From Atractiella rhizophila (Eukaryota): a stretch of DNA of 32,032 nt. How positions within the stretch are numbered: position 1 is the stretch's first letter; every line of letters starts with the position of its first letter. Under the pieces are notes generated by a model, which was given only the letters and a program-made list of their open reading frames with translations, was not told the origin of the DNA and searched no databases. The DNA is taken from contig MU271255.1 of assembly GCA_021432655.1 (NCBI GenBank), positions 87,201 through 119,232 of the forward strand. The letters are read 5' to 3'. Positions 98 to 14,224 of this stretch are shown in pieces. Made by a program: the position numbers and the translations under genes.

Positions 98-1113
98 ACT
101 CTGTTGGTTTCCAGGTACCATTTCTATCTCATGAATCGAAGCCTTCTTCTGCCTTACATTTGTCTTCCATCGAGTATATTTAGCCTGCAATCGCTGTATC
201 CTTTCCTCAACATCTATCAGGGCTGATCTTACTCCTGCTCAGTCACCGCCAGCACAAAATTTGCAAACCAGCTCTCAAGTCGCCGCGATGCAGCTGCAAC
301 GTCCACCGCCCATGCCTGCCTCAATGACACAAGCCTATCTCTCTCCCACGAATGCATACTACGGTGCTCCCTTTCTTAGTGGGTACGATCCACGATTGTA
401 TCCCGCTCCAGGATACCCCTACCTGCCTCCCTCCACCTCGCCATCGGCTGCAGCCGCCGCTGCCGCTGCCACCTCCCTCGGTTACTTGACCGGTCTCTAT
501 GGCACTTCGTATAATCATCATCACGCTGGACAACCGATCCCTGGCTTCCCTGCTCTAGCTGGTGGAGTGGGAATAGGCATGGGAGCAGGAAGTGGGGGCG
601 GGTCTAACATTGATTTCGCGCTGTTGAACGGATGGGCTGAGAACCAAAAATCAATGGAGAGGAACGCGTTGTCTACTTCTTCCTCCTCCGGGACCGGTAA
701 TGGCGACCATAGGGATACCCCCCTTTCAAGACTGCTCACCACTTCTCCGGGATTGGAGGAGCCATCTGGGAGTGGCAGTGGAGGGAGAAAGAGGAAGGCA
801 CCAGATCGAGATGGAGATCACGGGTCGGAGGTTTCGCACAAGAAAGAGAGGGTGGGAGGGACGACGCATGCGGATGATCTGGAGGCGTTGTTGTTCGGCG
901 CTTCTGTCCATGAGCGGAGAGAAAACGAAGTGAGCATCTTTCTCTGCCTATTGAAGATGAACGAGATGAGTTGATGTCAATGTACTTTCAGCAGCGACAA
1001 CACCTCTCCAGCATCTTCAATTCTCATCATCCTCAAAACGAAGGCGCAAAGGAGCAAGGCTTTGATTTCGCCAGCGCTTTGACTGGCGGTTTATTGACCG
1101 GTCGTTCGGATTT
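98..1113 (+). CDS. 3' part of a low-complexity (P/S/A/G/Y-rich) protein with a basic NLS-like patch; possibly the tail of a transcriptional regulator
   Basis: Putative exons 98-114, 243-929 and 992-1113 join in frame across GT..AG introns (930 GTGAGC..TTTCAG 991). RKRK motif present. The frame runs into the N gap and ends as ...GRSDFNWPSNHSQTQDGD* if the reversed block is read from 3283 downward (TAA at 3227-3225). The 5' end lies outside the window. Confidence 0.65.
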
Positions 1114-1189
1114 NNNNNNNNNNNNNNNNNNNNNNNNNNNNNNNNNNNNNNNNNNNNNNNNNNNNNNNNNNNNNNNNNNNNNNNNNNNN
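1114..1189. other. Assembly gap of 76 N, probably spurious
   Basis: Run of N. The 16 bp before it (1098-1113, CCGGTCGTTCGGATTT) equal positions 3283->3268 read backwards. Confidence 0.95.
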
Positions 1190-1740
1190 CGAACCACGCA
1201 ACTGTATAAGACATGAACAAATGTTGAGCTTCAGCGTGAGTCTCCGTAGAAAATATCCATTGTCGTGCCTTTCAACACGGCACAAAGGCTTGCTCGCAGT
1301 TGCGAAGTGGTTTCTCCGTTACGGACTGATACGTTTTTCTCTCCTCGTTTGCATTCGTTCCTCGACCTCCACGCAAGAAAGGAGTGAGGCTTATGCCACT
1401 TCACCTCTCCTGGTCCGAGGTAGAGGATAACGTTAAGAGCACGCGCTCTAACGATGCCTAGATCGTGTAGGTCTTGGAGACGACAACTGTCTTTCTACGT
1501 AGTAGAAACTAATAGTTCTGCGCGCTTGTTTAGTGTCTCCTTTCCTGCTACCGAAGGGACGTCCCCTCTGCTTTACGAGTGCGTATGGAAGGTGTGACTC
1601 TTGACAGTAAGGCCACACGAAACGAGTGTAGAGGTAGGGTATAGATTAAGCGTGCATAGGGTACATAGTGAGACTCGTGAGAGAGAGTCCTAAATCGGCA
1701 TCAAATGAGTCTTATGACATCAGTTCTGTGTTTCATAGTG

Positions 1741-3046
1741 TACTGGAGACATTCTAGAAACTTCGCTAATAATGCGCGTTTCATACGCGGTAACGAATTG
1801 TCGTAAGGAGAGTGAAGATATGATCTCGTTACATTCGAGACTATCATGGTTAAACCTCAGTAACTGTGCTGAACCGTCGCCCTACGCACTGGAGAGTTTA
1901 GGAACGGGTAGGAGAGATAGCGTTTCGAGCGAGCTATAGCTAGATAAACAGGTGACTCTTCCCACTTTAAGTCTGCCGACTATAAGACCCTCTGCGCAAC
2001 TCCCTCCCCTTCCTCCAAATATAAGGTATAACAAAGTTCGTACCACGCAGTAGCAAGAGAGGTCTCAGTCTAAACATAAAGCAGCATACTAGTACACACT
2101 AATTTGGCGATAGGAGAAGCGGGTCAGCGCAAGCACGTCTAAGTAGCCTATATAGTCAACCGTAAAAGTTTCCAAACTCACTTTTATTTCTGGGACTTTA
2201 GTAAACGACAGGAAGGGTCGTGAGTTAACGTCTTAAGGTCGGAAGCCCGAAGGCATTAGAAATCAACAACTGTGTTTGCTGAAGCATAACAATAGGTGAT
2301 GGTGTATACCCACAGCTTACACTCGTCGAACTCACTTTCGTAGTCACAGCTGAGCTCGACACAGAATGTAACTATTAACAGGTAAGGACTGTACTGTGCT
2401 AGCTACAAACAACTTGTAAGAAAAGTTTGGAGATAGACAAACAGTAACACAGATCTTTCTTTCTGGGAGCTATAGGTTAGATGGAGTTTCACCTCATGAC
2501 TGTCAAAGTGTCTTTTGCTTCTAGCTTACCTGTACTAGGCGCATGTGAGGAGAAAGTTCGGGTGGCTGGAGAGGAACTTAGCCACCGACTAGTCTCTTAA
2601 GTGTGGGAGAGTCCAACGTCTGTTTCTCGCGCCAAGCAGGGAAGTAGAAAGGAAAGGATGGCGACTTGTAAAGTACCTATACTGTCGTGAAAGCAGGCGA
2701 CGGTTGTCGAATCTGGATTAGTATTGCGGGCCCTACTAGAAGCTGTCCCTTTCTCCCTCCCATCCTGTGCCCTTCCCTATAATACTAGCTAAAGAACGGT
2801 CCCACCTACTCAAGTTGCTCCGCTTGCCCTTCCTCCCTCCCTGCTTCTGAGCATGCAGGAGACTGCAGTTTCACCACAGACAAGTGAAAAACAGAAGAAG
2901 CTACGCTTCACCGTGACCGCGACTTCCTTGTCTAGAACGGCCAACCTCTGTTACATGGGTACCTACCTTGCCTAGCCTTCCACCTACTTCACTAGACCAC
3001 GCTAGTACTAGTGAGTCTACTTTTGTTTCTGTTCTAACTCCTTACT
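1741..3046 (-). CDS. FAU1: 5-formyltetrahydrofolate cyclo-ligase (MTHFS/Fau1 family), about 225 aa. Readable only as the complement read left to right; it would lie at about 1427-2732 on the minus strand after un-reversing the block
   Basis: Exons 1741-1831, 1879-2043, 2513-2632, 2687-2851 and 2910-3046 total 678 nt, with all introns GT..AG. Translation: MTSVRSLKRLLRAKY...ARSISIYLSTEKGEIQTADILGDALREGKEVYIPYC...[29 protein letters not shown]...ALALKEQI...VPMDGTDRKVDEVI. This includes the family signature RxGxGxGYYDR. Confidence 0.95.
2091..2395 (-). ncRNA. Candidate intronic structured RNA, C/D-box snoRNA-like, in intron 2 of the hidden MTHFS gene (read as complement, left to right)
   Basis: The intron is 469 nt versus 47-58 nt for the others. 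TCATG-T-GTGATTA (box C-like, 2097-2103) and CTGA (2387-2390)-CATGA form a terminal stem. Internal hairpins AGCC-TTCG-GGCT and CAGCTTGAGT/ACTCGAGCTG. No guide target identified. Confidence 0.4.
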
Positions 3047-3283
3047 GCTACTTGCCTACGAACCTTCCTCCTCGTACCTTGATGCATAGTAAAGTTGACT
3101 TCCTGCTTGCTTGTTTGTTATGTCCTGCTCTTTCGCAAAGTTGTCCTAGCTACGTGCTTTATACTGACTACTATACGCTTTTATGACAGTCAATTTGTGA
3201 GGTAGTTCCTTTTCAATACTAGTAAATTAGGGGTAGAACTCAAACGCTCACTAATCTCCCGGTTAATTTTAGGCTTGCTGGCC

Positions 3284-4503
3284 TCTTGTCACCCCCTCTG
3301 TGCAGGGCGGTTTCCACGTACAAAATCTTCCTACGCCAAGTCCTCATGAAGGAGAGGTGTTGATAAAGATTATGGCATGCGGTTTGAACCCGATGGATCC
3401 AGTGATGCATGATTTGAACCTGTTTGTTCCTTCTTATCCGTTCGTTTTTGGAGGATGTGGAGTAGGAATCGTGCAAGATGTTGGGGAAGGCGTGAAGAGA
3501 TTTAAGAACGGCGACAAAGTGTGAGTGTGCTCTTGCTGGACCCACTTAATTTGGGAGATAAGGCTGAGCAGGTTGTGACAGGATGAGCGGAGGGATGGGA
3601 GGTGCTTTCCAACAATACAGGATAGTTGAAGAAAACCTGGTCTTTCGTGTCCATCTCTCCCCTTTCTTACCATCTCGGTTTTTTCTGAAGTTGCAAATAT
3701 AGGTACCTGACAATCTCAGCTTTGATGAAGCTGCGACCTTCCCCGTTCCGTTAGCCACAAGTGTTATTGGCCTTTTCGATGATTTTCCGCACGGAATTGG
3801 CCTGAACCCTGACTTCTCCTTGAAGGAAACTTGTAAGGGACAGACGGCCCTCGTCATTGGCGGAAGCACTTCTGTTGGGCAATATGGTTTATCTTTCTTT
3901 TTATTGCAGTAGTGTACAAATGCTAACAAGTTCACAGCAATCCAACTCCTCAAGTTGCTCGAATTCGCCAAAATCATCGCCTATGCTTCGAACACGCACG
4001 CACCTCACCTTAAATCCCTTGGTGCGACAGAGGTAATTGATCGCCACACCATATCGCTCGATCAACTCGGCTCCAAGCTGCAAGAACCAAAATTTGACGT
4101 GATCGTGGACATTGTTGGTACTCCAGAATCGCAGAAGGCAGTATGCGACTGTCTGCGAAATGGAGGGAGATTCCTCAATGTCAACATACGATTGCATCCA
4201 GGGATCGAGGAGAGGCTAAATGAAGGGGATAAGAAAGTCGCGAATGTTTTCGCGTCCTATAATCGAGCGTCTGTGGCTTTTCGTGAAAGGGCTTGGGAGG
4301 GAGTTCCGCTGCTGTTGGAACAGAAACATGTCCTTGTAAGTTTTACTTTTGATGTCAGTTCTCCAGTTGACGGTTGGTATTGGTAGCCATGTAGATACGA
4401 GGTATTGCCTGGCGGTCTGGCTGGCATCGTCCCTGGGATTGAAAGGTTGAGGAAGAAAGATATCAGCGGGATAAAACTTATTGGTCGCCCCTTTGATGAA
4501 TAA
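3284..4503 (+). CDS. MDR-superfamily NADPH oxidoreductase, enoyl-reductase-like (GroES-like plus Rossmann domain), copy 1. Its first 17 coding nt sit in the reversed block (ATG at 1206-1204 read backwards)
   Basis: Spliced product MSTHQALVTPSVQGGF...GEVLIKIMACGLNPMD...VGEGVKRFKNGDKV...VPDNLSFDEAATFP...ALVIGGSTSVGQYAIQLLK...HLKSLGATEVIDRH...ISGIKLIGRPFDE*. Four GT..AG introns, stop TAA at 4501-4503. Confidence 0.9.
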
Positions 4504-4658
4504 AATGGTTGTCAGAGAGCTCATGCCATTTGTCAATTAAAATTTGCAGAGCACCAGTATTCTCAGTTACAAAGGCTTGATCTGAACAGGCATTAGAATG
4601 ACAAAAGATGAAGTGAGCAAGATTGCACATAAGTGACTTCATCTCTTCAAGTTGCCAC

Positions 4659-5888
4659 TTACGTTTCAAAAGGACGTGTTAGCAATTTGAAACCACTGAT
4701 CTCCTTCCTCCTCAAACGATCAACGCCCTGTTCAACACTAGTGAAGCCACCGTCCAAAACTTCGTAGCGTGTTCCCTATGCAAACCTAAGTTAACATGCA
4801 CAGGAACTATACAACATTCTCTTACAATAAAGACCTTCTTCTCAAGTAATTCTGGGACGCGTTTCTTAGCGTGTGTCCGTATCTTTGACATGTTATATGC
4901 TCCAAAGACGCTGCAGATTCTTTTTCCCTCTTTCTCGGCTCGCTCCTGGATTCCCTTGTGCAAGTCGACGCAGCAGTTCAAAAACCCTCCTTCAGCTTTG
5001 AGGCAATCAAGTGCAATGGACTGCGACTCTAACGTGCCGACAACGCTGTCAATCACGATGTCGCAGGGATCAACTATCCCCGGAAGCTGGAACAAGGCAT
5101 CTGACCAACGATCTAGAACGCGTGTTGCACCCAAGGAGGTGAGATACGCCGCATGCTTGCTGGAAGCGTATGTCACAATTGTTTCGAAACCGAGGAACTT
5201 TAGCGTTTGAATGCCTGTTCGTCGAAAAGATAAAGCTTTTTTGTGGAAAGGATAGAGATGAAGACGAACAGTATTGGCCGACGCTGCTGCTTCCACCAAT
5301 GACGAGAGCGGATTTGCCCTTGCAGGGTTGATCCGTCGCGAAAGTTGGGTTGAGGCCCAAGCCGACGGGGGTTTCGTCCATTAATCCTATTACTGCTGTA
5401 CCGAAGCATACAGGGAGCGTGGCTGCTTCCTCGAAGCTCATGTTGTCAGGTACCTGTAAAATCAGAAGTGAGGGACCTGTACGCGATGTTGCACGGAAGG
5501 AACGAACGGGAAAGACAATTTCGCTTGACAGAGCCAAGTATTGCTGAAAGCCGCCGCCGACGATTCCAGCCATGCTGTGAGATGCTCTGTTCACTTCTAC
5601 ACTTCTCATACGTTGAGAGAAACTGACGTACACTCGATCGCCTTCTTTGAATTCCTCTACACCCTCTCCGACAGCTTCGACAGTCCCAGCAATGTCGCAT
5701 CCGAGCACAGTGGGAAAAGAAGGAACGCAGAAGGCTCGATCGTGCATCTTGTATTCCATTGGGTTCAATCCCACAACCAAAACCTTTATCAAAACCTCCC
5801 CTTTAGAAGGAGTAGGCACATCTGTCACTTGAATCACAAAGCCTCCTTTCATCGAAGGGGTGACAAGGGCTTTCTGGTTGACTGACAT
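4659..5888 (-). CDS. MDR-superfamily enoyl-reductase-like oxidoreductase, copy 2 (paralogue, convergent with copy 1)
   Basis: MSVNQKALVTPSMKGGF...GEVLIKVLVVGLNPMEYK...LGCDIAGTVEAVGEGV...VPDNMSFEEAATLP...GGSSSVGQY...EISGFKLLTRPFET*. Intron positions match copy 1. TATAAAA at 5955-5949. Confidence 0.9.
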
Positions 5889-6789
5889 CTTGAAAGTTGA
5901 CTTTGATATGGAAGTGGGCAATGGAACCTCCAACGTTGAAATATCTCATTTTATAGATATCTCCCTTGATCGCGGCATCTCATCTAAGGGGTGGAGCGTC
6001 ATACGGTACCACTGGTGAAAGTCGAAAGTCAAAACGCCGAGAAAGCATCAGAATATCATGGACGTCTTTCTCAGCAATGTAATTCCGAGACAACTAGCAA
6101 GCTAAAGCCACGGCTTGTACACACCAAAATTCAAGAGGCATGTACATTTGAATGTCTGAAGGTCAAGAAGTGTAACTGGTTTGTAACATTCAGTCTTTCG
6201 TTTCGTCCCTCGGCGGGAGCAACGAACCTGAGTAGGCCAGTATTCTAGCCGGACAACTTGTCAGCAGCAACGCACTCGGCGCGGAGACCTCTAACAATCA
6301 AGGAGCTAGACACATATGTCCGTGTCGAGTAGGGAAATAGCTACAAGAAGAACTAGGGAGGACTTGAGTAAGCTTGAATGTGCTTGGAAAACATCAAGAC
6401 CGTTGGATGCCGTTGAGCTCAGCTGAGCCTGAACTCCAGTTACCTAAGCAAAAGGTAATTGACGTGGGACAAAGGCTGGAAGGGTGGCTGGAATCTCCCA
6501 TTCACAGGCATTATTCTCTCAACAAGAAAGTCTTGCAAAGATTTAATGGAGTGATTAAAGCACCTCCATCCGAGAAAGTCAGGCATCTCCTTCCCAGCAT
6601 TCATCAATTCAGCACTAATCCTCTTTCAGCTAGGTAACGTTGTTTAGTTAAATTTAGAATATAATATTAAATGAGGGACTTAAAGAAAATTGATATAATA
6701 GAAGCGCTCACTAATACATAACCATCCTGCCACAAAGTCCTATTGCTGCAAGTGATAGGGAAGAACCACAAATATGGCCAACTGATCGC

Positions 6790-6831
6790 TTTCTCGCCTG
6801 TTCCCGCCTCTTCGAGAATCGAGAATTTTCA
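6790..6831 (+). promoter_or_regulatory. Heat-shock element (HSE) cluster upstream of FES1
   Basis: TTC at 6791, 6801 and 6811 with exact 10-bp spacing (step-type), then TTCnnGAA (6811-6818) and GAAnnTTC (6823-6830). Lies 70-110 bp upstream of a chaperone cofactor gene. Confidence 0.65.
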
Positions 6832-6902
6832 CCACTGTGCGCTCTATTAAAGGGCTGTTATCATCGGTTTTGCTTGCAAACGACTAGTCTAAACTCGCAG
6901 AC

Positions 6903-8243
6903 ATGGAGCAACAACTTTTGCAATGGGGACTTGCTAACGCGCCGCCAAACTCTTTACCAGCCCTCAATGCAGAAATTCAGGCTGGGAAGAGACCTGATTT
7001 GAATCCTGAGATGCTGAAGCATATTATGGGGGAAAGTGATGCAGAGAAGATCATGCGGTGCTTCAAGGTACTCAAGAGGAGTTTGGATGAAGGAGAACCA
7101 GCTAGTGAGCGAGAGGTGACTTGGGAGAGCCTTGAGATGGTACGCTCTTTTTTTGCTCTATGGAGGCAAAACGGGAGTGGCGAAGTCAAAAATTTGTAAT
7201 TCATTTACGATCCAGTGAACGATTATGCAAGAATAAAAGCGCAATGCGTCCTTTATAAGCTTTCCGACAGAGAGCATGCAAGTTCTGTCTGAGCGTAGAT
7301 GAAAAATCAATGCGCCCTTTCAAGCGTTTGATATTCCAAAAAATGGACGCTGATTGATTTTCACAGCTGGTGGCAGATCTGGACAATGCAAATGGTATAC
7401 AACTCAATAGTTGGTAACGAATCCGGCTGATTGTCTTTACAGATCTTGAGAACATGAAATTATGGCCTGTTCTCATTGAATTTCTACAAGCAAAAGATGA
7501 CCTCGACAAATTCAACGCTCTCTGGATCTGTGGTACGGCCATTCAGAACAACGAGAAGTCGCAAAATCACGTAGGTCCTCCTTTGTTCGCTATGAGAATT
7601 TTCTAATGATTGATCATTTCGTAGTTCCTAGCGCAAAACCCATTACCGCTACTCAACTCGATCGTCCTCGACAATCCATCAGCTGAGACGCGTTCGAAGG
7701 CTATCTACTGTATTTCCGGATGCCTGAAGCACAACGAGAAGACCGCTACGCAGTGGTTGGACTCTGAAGGAGTCGAAATACTCCATCGAGGGTTAACAGG
7801 TTCGTTCTCCACTTCTCACAACTGGTATTGCGATTAAGAACGAAAACGTCGTGTTAGATCCCTCACTTGTAATGCGCCGTCGCACCTCATGGCTCCTAAT
7901 CACCCTTCTCACACAGTCCACCTCCACTGCCACCCTCGTTCAGAATCTTCGGAAACCGCCTTCTCCACTACACGACTTGCTTTCCTCCCTCTCTCCTTCC
8001 ACCTCGATACCTACCGGTCCTGATGGCGATTCAGAAGGTGTGGATGCGATTTATCGCGAGAATGCTTTGAAGGCCATTTTAATGATTGTGGGAAGTGAGG
8101 GAGAGGGAAATGAGGAGGCATTAAATGAGGAGGAAAAGAAGAAGGTTAGTCAAGCGTTGAAGGAGATGAGGGAGACAGAGAAAGTGGAGTGGGAGGACTT
8201 AGGCTTGGCGAGTAGTGAGGGTGAGAAGTTGCTGCGTTTGTAG
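6903..8243 (+). CDS. FES1: Hsp70 nucleotide exchange factor Fes1/HspBP1 (armadillo-like)
   Basis: Spliced product MEQQLLQWGLANA...LNPEMLKHIMGESDAE...WESLEM|LVADLDNAN|DLENMKLWPVL...ALWICGTAIQNNEKSQ...TRSKAIYCISGCLKHN matches the Fes1 pattern. Four introns, the first at 7140-7366. Confidence 0.9.
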
Positions 8244-8413
8244 CGAGCTCCGTACCATATGTGGAAATAGAAATGTAATATGCACGTGTTGCAGTGACAA
8301 CGGTCATCGTCATTCCAAAGGCGAGCTGATTAGTCTACAGCTTGAATACATGGCGAATAATGATACATTGTTTGGCTATTTACTTTGTTCAAGAACAAGG
8401 CCCTATTCCCTAC

Positions 8414-8891
8414 TTAGACCTGCCTCTCTCCTCCACCTAACGCATCCTTTACTGAATCAATTGCTCCTCCCGCCTTCTGTCTCGCATCATCCTTCAGCTC
8501 TTCAGCCTTATCGACCGCGGTATAGCCCATCTCTTTCGTTTCGGCTCCTGATGGGACGATTTCATTGGGATTGTGATATTCAGCCTGCAAAAATCAACCC
8601 AAATCTTTAAGACGACAACGAACACGCAGAGGTGGGGGAGTACAAACCCTTCCAGCTTCTTTCTGCACACGCCCACGGTCCTCCATGTCTTTGTTCCCAG
8701 CTAAATAACCGCCGAACTCTTTCACTGATCCGAAAGAACTGCGTCCAGCCTTTCTCAACCATAGCTTGGATGGAAGGACAAGAGCAGACTCACGCTTTGC
8801 TGTTTGCTTGCGCCTCTGTTGGAAGGTCTCCAGCATTCGGTTGCTCAAGGTAAGGGAATTCGTTGCCAGTGGAGGGAAGAGTGTTCGACAT
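8414..8891 (-). CDS. Small hydrophilic stress protein, CsbD/LEA/Hmp1-like, about 119 aa
   Basis: Exons 8891-8794, 8738-8648 and 8584-8414 join in frame: MSNTLPSTGNEFPYLEQPNAGDLPTEAQANSKASFGSVKEFGGYLAGNKDMEDRGRVQKEAGRAEYHN...AVDKAEELKDDARQKAGGAIDSVKDALGGGERQV*. The GSVKExxG..GN..ME..G..Q pattern is CsbD-like. Confidence 0.75.
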
Positions 8892-8984
8892 GCTGATTGT
8901 TCAATGAGTTGAGCTTGAGTGCTTGGGCTTCGTGTTACTTGAAATGATTGGGTTTGATGAAGGAAGGCCCTTGCAGGTATGCGC

Positions 8985-9076
8985 TTTTATATCTGCAGTG
9001 TCCAACCTCAGATGCACTGACGAAATTGACGACAGGGGAGTAATGACGTCACAGCACAAGCATACACGTGACATCA
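8985..9076 (-). promoter_or_regulatory. Stress-type promoter of the hydrophilin gene: TATA, STRE, CRE and E-box motifs
   Basis: TATAAAA on the minus strand at 8991-8985, AGGGG at 9034-9038, TGACGTCA at 9044-9051, and CACGTG overlapping TGACATCA at about 9065-9076. Confidence 0.5.
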
Positions 9077-9557
9077 AATGTAGCAGGCTATATTCTCTAT
9101 CCTTATTTCTTCAGGACGTTAGCAGCGGATCTGAATGACAAACGATTGATACATCCAATGGCCATTGATGCCCCCCCACCCTAAAACGCAGATATAACAA
9201 TGGCTAAGTAACCTCAATCAACGAAGAGACATTGCCACTGTCTTGTGCATTCTTTGAGAGCACTGAAGCTCTACAAATGAGTAAGGTCGGTACCCGAATG
9301 AGAGATGGTTTCAAGTTGCTGAGCACCAATTACTACGAGTGGTATCGATTGGCATTACCAGACATCACAAGTCTATAGCTGGGCTCAGGCTGGATTTCCT
9401 TGTCGCCTGGCTTGCCCGTCAACAACGGTCTGTGGAACGAGCAATCTCCGACACCCATGGAGGTTCAACGTTCAACGTTCAGAACATTCAGTTCGCACAT
9501 ACTACATGACGATATCAACAGACGATGCTCGCTGCAGTCCAACAAACTTTCCTCTCT

Positions 9558-11059
9558 TCAGCCTTGAACCGAATCCTTCGTAATCTCATCCCTATCTCTT
9601 CCATCAGAGATCTCCGGTCAACGTGCAAGATGAGCGCTAGACGGACCTCTTTTCCGCATTTTCGAGTGTCTCAACATTGACCATCACACCTGGATAACTG
9701 ACACGCAACCACCCCTCCATATCAGGTGTTCGAAAGTTTGGAGCTGCATTCCCGCATCCACCGCCGTCACCACTTCTCTTGCCGCCTCCGTCCTGGGAGT
9801 TTGGATCGGGAGCCACAGTTCTAAGGTGGAGAACAATGCGAGAAGCCATCATCGTGGTGAATGTTACAGTAAGCGGTCCGTTCAACGTTCGGTTAGGTTG
9901 CCCAGGGATGCTGTTGTCCAGGTTGGCGGTCAGTTTTACATGGTCGGCTTGCAAAGGCGGGGAAGGACAGTACAAGAAGTATATCACGTTGATGAGGTTG
10001 CAGAGAGATACGATGACGAAGTAAAGGAGCCCATCGCGTAAGAAGACTGAGAGGAGCCGCGAACGAGTTGGATTAGGTCCCTGGATGATTGGTGTCCTGT
10101 ACTGAGATTCAGCAACTAGTACAATCTGCAATTAGGAAGATGTTAAATGTGATTTACATGAGCATAAATGCCGTAGCTGTCGCGTCGTAGAGCAGAAGTG
10201 GGACCCTACCGTTGCCCCCATCAATCTGACTACTCGATACAGTTAAAGCACAAACCAATAGACCCAAATGTGGCTGTAAGGAGCATCAGCTTGGCTGCGT
10301 CACGTTGAGAAAGAAATAGATCACTTCTGGCCTCCGCTCGCAGTGATGCATCCCCTCAACCCTGACAGCCTATGGAGCCGTTATCGTATCTTCCATAATT
10401 ATTGAAAACTTACAAAGGCAATGCTTTATTCGGCGCAAATGCCCAGATCTGAAGAGCAGTACCACAGATTGCAAATGTTGCAAAGAACCAAGCAATCCAT
10501 TTCCGACGGTTCCACACTACCCACACCCTCGCACCAAGCAGGAAGTTGCAATTCACTGTAACCATTCACATGTGTCACTTTCCGCGGACATGGGTTGTGA
10601 GAAGGGAACGAACGAAAGAGAATGGTGGTCGCAATAGGTTCGAGAATGTGAATCTTGGCGCACGTCTTTGGGTTGATTTCGGACCAGCCGAGATACATCG
10701 CTTGGACAAAGACCAGGAGACTCCAGTAGCTTCAAGTCCCTCACATAAGCCTTCTACCTACCCAGCACATGAGATCATACCGGTTGAAGAAGAAGGCGAA
10801 TCGAACTGGCGTCCAGCGGTCCGCCTTCCATAGCGACTTATATTCGTTAGGGAAAGTAAGGATAAAATCCCAGGCGTAAATAGCAAAGCAAGCTATTCTC
10901 CAGTCAGCAGAGCTTAGTGTCGGAGGGAGAAGAGAGGAAACCGGTGATATAGGTACGACCCGCAGAAAGGGCTTCCTCCACAGCTGCACGTTGGAGAGCG
11001 AGATCAAGCTGTTCTTGAACTGTAGGACTCGAACTTGCTGAAGCAGCTGTTGAAGCCAT
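9558..11059 (-). CDS. Multi-pass membrane protein of the basidiomycete DUF6533 (GPCR-like) family
   Basis: N-terminal ACFAIYAWDFILTFPNEYKSLWKADRWTPVRFAFFFNRY and C-terminal LLSVFLRDGLLYFVIVSLCNLINVI...TTMMASRIVLHLR are typical family motifs. Many short introns; both termini are approximate. Confidence 0.75.
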
Positions 11060-12337: not shown

Positions 12338-14224
12338 ATGAAGAAGCGCAACTTCTCTATCACCACAAGACCGCCGCATCATCGCGCCCGCTCCTCTCAG
12401 ACCTTCCAGCGGTTTCTGTCGTCCATCTTTCGTCCCCATCGTGCGCTTACATTCTCCTCCGTCTTCTCAAAACGTCCCTCCCAGCCCTCCTCACCAATCC
12501 AATGGCTTCCTCCAGAAATCCTCACGCTTATATTCGAATTTCTGGTATCCGCCGAACCCGCCTCTTCCACCTCCAGCGCTAGGGCATACTCGTTACCGAA
12601 ACCTGGTAGGGTCTGCTTGTTGTGGTATGAGATCATCAGCCGGCTGTGGTTGAGGAACTTCAGCTGCGTTCACACTCGAGGCACACAATTTTTGGAAGAC
12701 TATCTCTCGCGACATTCGGAGGTGGAATCGAGATACTTGACGGAGGAGAGTGGGAGGAATTCGTGGATTCGCGATCTGACCATTGTTGGATTTCAAACTT
12801 GGAGGGATATCGTGAGACTGCTGAAATTACTCAAATCTTCTAATGGAGGGAAACTCTTCAAGTTGCGTATGGAGGTGCCGGCCATGTTGGATGACGATTA
12901 TGGGTTGGACGTGGGGGAGGAAAGTGGGATGATTGCGTGGCCGACCTTGTTCATGAACCATCTCACCTGCCTCAAGATAGAAATTATTCGATGGCACCGG
13001 GATCATCGTCAACCGTCGACTAACGAGCTCCTAGCCGACCACATTGTGCGTTGGATGTGCACCTGTTTACCATCTCTACAGATCCTACGTCTCGGCGGCG
13101 GCTGGGAGAGCGACAGTTTCCGTCTGCCACCGTCTGAAAACACCTACTTCCGTCAATTCCCTCCCCTGCTCTCCATCTCCTTTCATGGTTGGCTCGGTTC
13201 CTCAACCAACTTCCAATCCCTCTTCTCCACTGCGTCCCAGCCAAACCTCTCCTCTCTCTCCCTTTCAGCAGGTCCAGACAACAGCGGAACCATCCGTTTC
13301 CTAGTCGACACATTCGCGCACTCTCTTACCCAGCTACGTATAATTTACTGCCGCCCAGACTCCGCGAATTTCCTAGAGCTACTGCTCAGAGGCCTGACTC
13401 GACTCAAACGCTTCGACTATGTCGGTTTCTCTAGCCTCTCCGCATGGGCATCGGACTCTCGTCCTCTTTCCTCCCCCTCCCGGATCTCAGATTCGCTCCA
13501 ACTGATCTGTCTCTACCCCCTAGGTAGACGGCCCGCGTTGATAGACACTCTTGCTTCTGTCAAGTTCAAGCAACTGTTTCCCAAGCTGGAGACGATAAGA
13601 GTGGCACGGCAGAGGAGCGACCCGATATTCCGTCAATTCCCTCCCCTGCTCTCCATCTCCTTTCATGGTTGGCTCGGTTCCTCAACCAACTTCCAATCCC
13701 TCTTCTCCTCTGCGTCCCAGCCAAACCTCTCCTCTCTCTCCCTTTCAGCAGGTCCAGACAACAGCGGAACCATTCGTTTCCTAGTCGACACATTCGCGCA
13801 CTCTCTTACCCAACTACGAATAATTTACTGCCGCCCCGACTCCGTGAATTTCTTGGAGCTACTGCTCAGAGGTCTCACTCGACTCAAACGCTTCGACTAT
13901 GTCGGTTTCTCCAGCCTCTCCGCATGGGCATCGGACTCTCGTCCTCTTTCCTCCCCTTCTCGGATCTCAGATTCCCTCCAACTGATTTGTCTCTACCCCC
14001 TGGGTAGACGACCCGCGTTGATAGACACTCTTGCTTCTGTCAAGTTCAAGCAACTGTTTCCCAAGCTGGAGACGATAAGAGTGGCACGGCAGAGGAGCGA
14101 CCCGATCGGAATGGAGTTGAAGGAGATCGCGAGGGAGATGGACCTCAAGAAGTCGTTGGAGAGTCATAAGATCGTGATGGAGATTGTCACTGATGTCGGT
14201 GACGAATTGGTTGCTGATTGGTGA
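12338..14224 (+). CDS. F-box-like / LRR(RNI)-like protein, 628 aa, single exon, with an internal 160-aa tandem duplication
   Basis: Uninterrupted ORF. PIQWLPPEILTLIFEFL...RVCLLWYEI is F-box-like. LxxLxL motifs downstream (LPSLQILRL, LSSLSL, LTQLRI, FPKLETIRV). Confidence 0.75.
   Translation: MKKRNFSITTRPPHHRARSSQTFQRFLSSIFRPHRALTFSSVFSKRPSQPSSPIQWLPPEILTLIFEFLVSAEPASSTSSARAYSLPKPGRVCLLWYEIISRLWLRNFSCVHTRGTQFLEDYLSRHSEVESRYLTEESGRNSWIRDLTIVGFQTWRDIVRLLKLLKSSNGGKLFKLRMEVPAMLDDDYGLDVGEESGMIAWPTLFMNHLTCLKIEIIRWHRDHRQPSTNELLADHIVRWMCTCLPSLQILRLGGGWESDSFRLPPSENTYFRQFPPLLSISFHGWLGSSTNFQSLFSTASQPNLSSLSLSAGPDNSGTIRFLVDTFAHSLTQLRIIYCRPDSANFLELLLRGLTRLKRFDYVGFSSLSAWASDSRPLSSPSRISDSLQLICLYPLGRRPALIDTLASVKFKQLFPKLETIRVARQRSDPIFRQFPPLLSISFHGWLGSSTNFQSLFSSASQPNLSSLSLSAGPDNSGTIRFLVDTFAHSLTQLRIIYCRPDSVNFLELLLRGLTRLKRFDYVGFSSLSAWASDSRPLSSPSRISDSLQLICLYPLGRRPALIDTLASVKFKQLFPKLETIRVARQRSDPIGMELKEIAREMDLKKSLESHKIVMEIVTDVGDELVADW
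13148..14106 (+). repeat. Direct tandem duplication, 2 x 480 bp, in frame
   Basis: 13148-13626 versus 13628-14106: 17 mismatches by manual count (about 96.5% identity), no indels. Confidence 0.97.

Follow-up and report, generated by a model that had tools for sequence, protein, structure and literature searches.

A 2,094-nucleotide block written in reverse order, without complementing, in a deposited scaffold of Atractiella rhizophila

Reversed sequence in records, in chromosomes and by design

Slips in which a sequence is reversed without being complemented, or complemented without being reversed, occur in single-gene records, but our literature search for a kilobase-scale mirrored block inside a genome scaffold found none. 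Orientation and handling errors in records resemble the case described here both in what they preserve, namely composition and length, and in what they lose, namely open reading frames, splice sites and the k-mer spectrum; the block reported here is, in addition, bounded by a gap and fully restored by reversal of the string. Chromosomal inversion, by recombination or transposition, likewise flips the order of a segment between two breakpoints. A real inversion, however, is a reverse complement, whereas the present block is uncomplemented.

The only kilobase-scale DNA reversed but not complemented that we found in the literature is a deliberately synthesised backwards HPRT1 locus, as described in the accessible part of 10.1101/2025.02.04.636130, which cites the synthetic locus as work of 2024. 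The string operation is the same as here, with composition, homopolymers and short repeats kept and with coding sequence and motifs destroyed by the reversal. The difference is that the synthetic locus is physical DNA, built intentionally and carried in engineered cells, whereas here the reversal is in the record only.

The sequence analysed, hereafter the window, is a stretch of 32,032 nucleotides from A. rhizophila (assembly GCA_021432655.1, contig MU271255.1, positions 87,201 to 119,232). Its sole run of N, at 1114-1189, is followed directly on the 3' side by a block of 2094 nt. An earlier note, made from the letters alone, had claimed that this block is mirror-written, and both of its joints, its k-mer likelihood, its open reading frames and its homology agree with that description; we regard it as confirmed that 1190-3283 is real fungal DNA in pure reverse order. 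The main features of the layout are these:

1098..1113, plus strand: last 16 nt of the left contig, a true overlap of two contig ends, with its mirror copy at 3268-3283
1114..1189, no strand assigned: scaffold gap of 76 N; the true flanking sequences overlap by 16 nt and a real gap is absent
1190..3283, no strand assigned: mirror-written block, 2094 nt of real DNA reversed without complementing
3268..3283, no strand assigned: mirror copy of 1098-1113, exact over 16 nt

The true order of the block runs from 3283 down to 1190, and the true distance from 1113 to 3284 is 2078 nt. Because C stands at both 1190 and 3283, the limits of the reversal are fixed to within one base. The corrected join, with the overlap merged, measures 31,940 nt.

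Sequence statistics of the block

The dinucleotide TA occurs at 76.4 per kb in the block as written, compared with 38.3 per kb in the rest of the window and 40.1 per kb in the reversed block; the corresponding figures for CTAG are 8.1, 1.9 and 1.4 per kb. As written, the block has a longest open frame of 89 codons and 234 stops over six frames, values outside those of all 13 equal-sized control blocks, whose longest open frames range from 128 to 504 codons and whose stops number 108 to 202. After reversal, the longest open frame is 203 codons and there are 170 stops. The earlier note's impression of a block poor in open reading frames and rich in TA and CTAG is borne out by these counts. The longest open reading frame of the block as written, at 2917-3183, has no Pfam match.

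For a likelihood comparison, a strand-symmetric Markov model was trained on the rest of the window with k from 2 to 5, control blocks being held out. The likelihood of the written sequence minus that of its reversal was -66 to -104 nats in the block over this range of k, and +16 to +74 nats in 13 of 13 controls. In 400-nt sliding windows the same difference was negative for all ten that lie within the block (-8 to -18), while those outside it had a mean of +9.1 with a standard deviation of 4.8 and a minimum of -3.4, five falling marginally below zero. The models being strand-symmetric, the reverse-complement orientation of the block is just as abnormal in k-mer likelihood as the written one. 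Reversal of the string therefore restores the genome's usual oligonucleotide statistics by every measure applied, that is, likelihood, TA and CTAG frequency, stops and open reading frame length. The second part of the claim, that the block is ordinary fungal DNA in its other reading, holds as well: the reversed block has the k-mers, stops and TA and CTAG frequencies of its background.

No control in the window overlaps the block in the written-versus-reversed Markov statistic, which is cheap to compute for the screening of whole databases. A scan of the window for further reversed stretches found none besides 1190-3283. Searched by blastn in both orientations, the remainder of the window contains no second copy of the block. 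Apart from the overlap at its edge, the best matches were 18-19 nt long with E of 0.2-0.7: one chance match of 18 nt for the reversed block (E 0.2) and one of 19 nt for the block as written (E 0.68).

Joints, genes and contigs of public runs

That the block, read from 3283 downward, begins with the sequence that stands just before the gap had been asserted in the earlier note, and the identity is exact: blastn against the remainder of the window aligns the opening 16 nt of the reversed block to 1098-1113 with 16 of 16 identical positions. The chance of identity for a fixed 16-mer is about 2e-10 (4^-16). Reversal restores continuity with both flanks, through this overlap and through open frames that run over both joints. 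The gene features at the left joint are:

288..1113, plus strand: left gene (hypothetical protein), exons 288-929 and 992-1113, truncated by the N run
3225..3267, read right to left, no strand assigned: end of the left gene, consisting of the third base of a Phe codon, 13 codons (NWPSNHSQTQDGD) and a TAA stop

The intron of the left gene, 930-991, is 62 nt long with GT..AG ends, and an intron-less contig from one of the public runs described below (X3) joins 929 to 992. As written, the gene lacks its last 14 codons and its stop; in the corrected sequence it reads across the joint as ...LTGRSD-FNWPSNHSQTQDGD- followed by the TAA stop. Public proteins were searched with the first exon as query at E <= 1e-10 and split by length class, which gave two proteins in the near class and none in the longer class.

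The hypothetical protein BT69DRAFT_37747 of A. rhizophila in the NCBI collection (269 aa; P0002) is encoded on a separate contig of 7124 bases. It matches the window at 100% identity over 288-929 (214 residues), with the alignment continuing to 1111, and its C-terminus reads ...GRSDFNWPSNHSQTQDGDK / ...LTGRSDFNWPSNHSQTQDGDK. All 14 of its residues that follow GRSD are found in the reversed block (14/14), and they are absent from all six frames of the block as written. To judge by these residues, P0002 is an independent sequence from the same organism that agrees with the backwards reading. It ends in ...GDK, where the reversed reading has ...GD followed by a stop; the final K would follow from a one-base difference, GATTAAATGA versus GATAAATGA. 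The 7124-base contig belongs to the same public assembly and is a redundant or allelic copy of the region that is wrong in the scaffold.

A second protein, BT69DRAFT_1029148 (230 aa; P0003), is encoded on the 119,232-base contig itself. Within the first exon this model departs from the true frame, and it terminates, short of the gap, with ...ALISPAL at the TGA of 1080-1082, which is how a gene caller behaves when the real end of a gene is missing.

At the right joint, reversal supplies the start of a dehydrogenase gene, with the following features:

1190..1206, read right to left, no strand assigned: dehydrogenase start, ATG plus five and two-thirds codons (M S T H Q A-), truly adjoining 3284
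1250..1256, read right to left, no strand assigned: TATAAAA, 44-50 nt upstream of the restored ATG
3284..4500, plus strand: dehydrogenase body, zinc-type alcohol dehydrogenase / GroES-like, start missing

At its far end the reversed block reads ATG TCA ACG CAC CAA GC (17 nt), which joins T CTT GTC ACC at 3284 in frame, so the fusion that had been proposed at this position is found in the corrected join. The corrected N-terminus reads MSTHQA-LVTPSVQGGF (MSTHQALVTPSVQGGFHVQNLPTPSP...) and aligns from residue 1 with that of the window's own paralogue, MSVNQKALVTPSMKGGF... (MSVNQKALVTPS), on the minus strand at 5070-5933. As written, the gene is without promoter, ATG and its first five and two-thirds codons. 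The TATAAAA motif upstream of the restored ATG is a possible TATA box by its match to the consensus.

A search of public proteins with exon 1 of this gene gave a single one (at E <= 1e-10 among 45 candidates, in the longer length class): 'GroES-like protein, partial [Atractiella rhizophila]' (P0001), which is likewise encoded on the 119,232-base contig. It starts with QGGFHV at window position 3303, 19 nt to the right of the joint, and aligns to 3303-3521 (100%) and 3589-4500. Both domains of the zinc-type alcohol dehydrogenase / GroES-like family score above their Pfam cut-offs in this protein, ADH_N (PF08240) at 5.5e-14 and 52.7 bits (cut-off 23.5) and ADH_zinc_N (PF00107) at 1.4e-13 and 51.3 bits (cut-off 31.8), which places the right-hand gene in that family. 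A search of genome contigs for loci related to P0001 found none. Within the window, two zinc-type dehydrogenase paralogues lie tail to tail, at 3284-4500 on the plus strand and at 4573-5933 on the minus strand; P0001 and the minus-strand paralogue share 42-57% identity in three pieces.

Between the two joints, the reversed reading carries similarity to the folate enzyme Fau of Escherichia coli, in two places:

1893..2075, read left to right as the complement, no strand assigned: N-terminal part of the hidden gene, matching E. coli Fau residues 23-87
2377..2985, no strand assigned: longest open frame of the corrected reading, 203 codons, at 1396-2004 of the corrected join on the minus strand

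E. coli Fau carries the annotation 5-formyltetrahydrofolate cyclo-ligase and comes from a locus in which PF01812 is matched at 1.6e-47. With this single bacterial query, tblastn gave two matches of moderate E on the reversed block, colinear and on the same strand. The match of residues 23-87 has E 1e-5 (reversed-block positions 1391-1209, minus strand); that of residues 110-145, at window 2710-2817, has E 4e-6 and 42% identity and covers the pattern ...ITP..FD....R.G.G.G.YDR.L. Against the block as written, Fau reached no better E than 0.06. The minus strand of the join carries open frames of 203 and 74 codons, and the 203-codon frame holds what appears to be the C-terminal core of a 5-formyltetrahydrofolate cyclo-ligase homologue. 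The two stretches together give the hidden gene PF01812-family similarity over the conserved core. The backwards reading, as far as homology can tell, contains a 5-formyltetrahydrofolate cyclo-ligase homologue that is invisible as written. The block had been said to hide one gene and to truncate two others, and this is the state of the locus: the cyclo-ligase homologue is present in the reversed reading only, and both the left gene and the dehydrogenase are damaged.

Contigs from four public runs (X1 to X4) were compared with the window as written only, over 143-10612 and at a likeness of at least 80%. The evidence from these contigs consists of the points at which they depart from the window and the lengths of their overhangs, the overhangs having been compared with the written window only. 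At the left edge, record 1 of X1 (1666 letters) fits 143-1113 and then continues for 524 more letters past 1113, and record 14 of X3 (1460 letters, with the intron spliced out) fits 264-929 and 992-1113 and continues for 672 more. At the right edge, record 2 of X1 and record 9 of X2, of 1111 letters each and from one sample, fit 3283-3993 and carry 400 more letters to the left. The overhanging letters, past 1113 or to the left of 3283, fit nothing on the stretch as written. A fit that begins at 3283 and not at 3284 is to be expected from the backwards reading, in which 3284 is preceded by C (that of 1190) and this C by G.

DNA molecules therefore exist that continue otherwise than the written block at both of its edges. 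The contigs of X3 and X4 are without introns (GT..AG joints) and so are probably derived from RNA, and RNA molecules probably likewise continue otherwise than the written block. Between the window and the contigs of X1 and X2, about 1-2% of positions differ (10 of 971 letters over 143-1113, and 14-15 of 711 over 3283-3993); these contigs are therefore DNA from another strain or haplotype and not the assembled sequence itself. Independent sequence from the same organism thus sides with the reversed reading, in the tail of P0002 and in the departures of X1, X2 and X3 contigs at 1113 and 3283.

Depth in the bins of 1190-2585 was 0 in four of four runs at the likeness of at least 80%, an absence of cover that is not counted here as a finding. 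In the bins of 2586-3283 depth was at most 15.3, against 125-315 in the flanking bins of X1 and X2. Our guess is that this small depth probably comes from a CT-rich, low-complexity tract near 2740-2850, which is alike in both directions.

Origin of the block

The likeliest explanation, and one that we hold with high confidence, is that the block is a software artefact in the deposited A. rhizophila scaffold and not the DNA of the organism. The backwards reading is shown to be the real sequence, and the defect is shown to lie in the deposited assembly, because the damage to P0001 and P0003, two public models of the 119,232-base contig, coincides exactly with the edges of the block. The earlier note had preferred a handling error to biology, and the tail of P0002, the joints and the damaged public models all speak for that preference. 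Among the causes that it listed, an error in the handling of the assembly stands; a manipulation at some later stage does not fare so well, the damage to P0001 and P0003 in the deposit speaking against it.

How the artefact arose is a separate matter. From the geometry alone we infer, tentatively and as something somewhat short of probable, a gap-filling or contig-extension step at the 5' end of the right contig. The right contig, having begun at 3284, would have been grown outward at its 5' end, nearest base first, and the outward-grown string would then have been prepended to it without being turned round; an equivalent slip would be a filler held on the other strand and complemented without being reversed. 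By either slip, the 2078 nt between 1113 and 3284, together with the 16-nt overlap with the left contig, would have been written reversed and uncomplemented after a leftover gap of 76 N. Three details of the locus would then be accounted for: that 1190 is the true neighbour of 3284, that no N stands between the block and 3284, and that the 16-nt overlap with the left contig went unrecognised and a residual gap was left in place. A literature search for the assembly method of this genome, or for a bug of this kind, found nothing.

A different route to an artefact is possible but less probable: the block may have been a separate contig, or a patch from other data, whose flip by a scaffolding or finishing script stopped at reversal (or at complementation) before it was butted to the right contig. 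The end product would be identical, and the redundant 7124-base contig covers the locus, so the region did exist in separate pieces. Such a piece, however, would normally have N on both sides, yet none stands at 3283/3284, and the boundary between the block and the right contig is exact to the base, which an extension of that contig would explain better. SOLiD colour space encodes a sequence and its reverse complement by the same colours in opposite order, so that decoding from a wrong start base can yield a pure reversal; a slip of this kind was set aside, as nothing here points to such data.

It is highly improbable that the deposit is correct and that the block was reversed later in a copy, through a slip in file processing or as a deliberate decoy. 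Reversed-but-not-complemented sequence is a standard deliberate control, the backwards HPRT1 locus being an example in the accessible part of 10.1101/2025.02.04.636130. A correct deposit, however, would have given the dehydrogenase model an ATG contiguous with exon 1, whereas the model in the public record lacks its 5' end and begins only 19 nt to the right of the joint; the error is therefore very unlikely to have been made after deposit. In addition, only about one random placement of a decoy in 32,000 would put its first base directly after the N run.

That a segment of the chromosome really stands in mirror order in the organism is so improbable as to be negligible: we found no evidence in its support, it would be unprecedented, another contig of the same organism encodes the un-reversed tail, contigs from three runs part from the sequence as written at the block's edges, and the block sits beside an assembly gap with a 16-nt overlap to the left contig that appears only when it is reversed. 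Strand polarity is established, and breakage and rejoining of double-stranded DNA cannot reverse a sequence without complementing it; the products can only be reverse complements. An ordinary biological inversion fares no better, for homology and continuity with the flanks are found only in the non-complemented reversal.

If the artefact arose by a slip in software, that slip might be systematic, in which case more mirrored blocks would lie beside gaps, on the extended 5' side of contigs, in this assembly and in others from the same pipeline; we consider this conceivable, though rather doubtful. Its consequences would be genes silently dropped from proteomes, false 'gene losses' and partial models, and a scan by written-versus-reversed k-mer likelihood would find all such blocks.

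For the single case, a single string operation has left two wrong gene models at the locus and a public A. rhizophila proteome without the folate-metabolism gene that belongs there, and comparative studies risk misreading the locus as gene loss or truncation. In the accessible part of the phylogenomic paper PMC13347111, A. rhizophila is the only genome-sequenced representative of its class that is named. The value of the observation is one of curation, namely a correction to the public record and a cheap statistic for finding further cases; the block is without biological interest.

Three other places in the window are recorded here as side observations. An uninterrupted open reading frame of 628 codons on the plus strand at 12338-14224 has no Pfam match at E <= 0.001. 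The region 9780-10612 is probably a repeat or a variable region: in several runs its joints and loose ends are numerous, and depth there is raised (878-1789 in X1 and X2). At 8170-8867, summed depths in X3 reach about 29,800 and about 21,100, against tens to hundreds elsewhere, with a loose end of 22 T before 8289 and CT..AC joints at 8738/8794, a pattern suggestive of very high expression of a minus-strand gene that ends near 8289.
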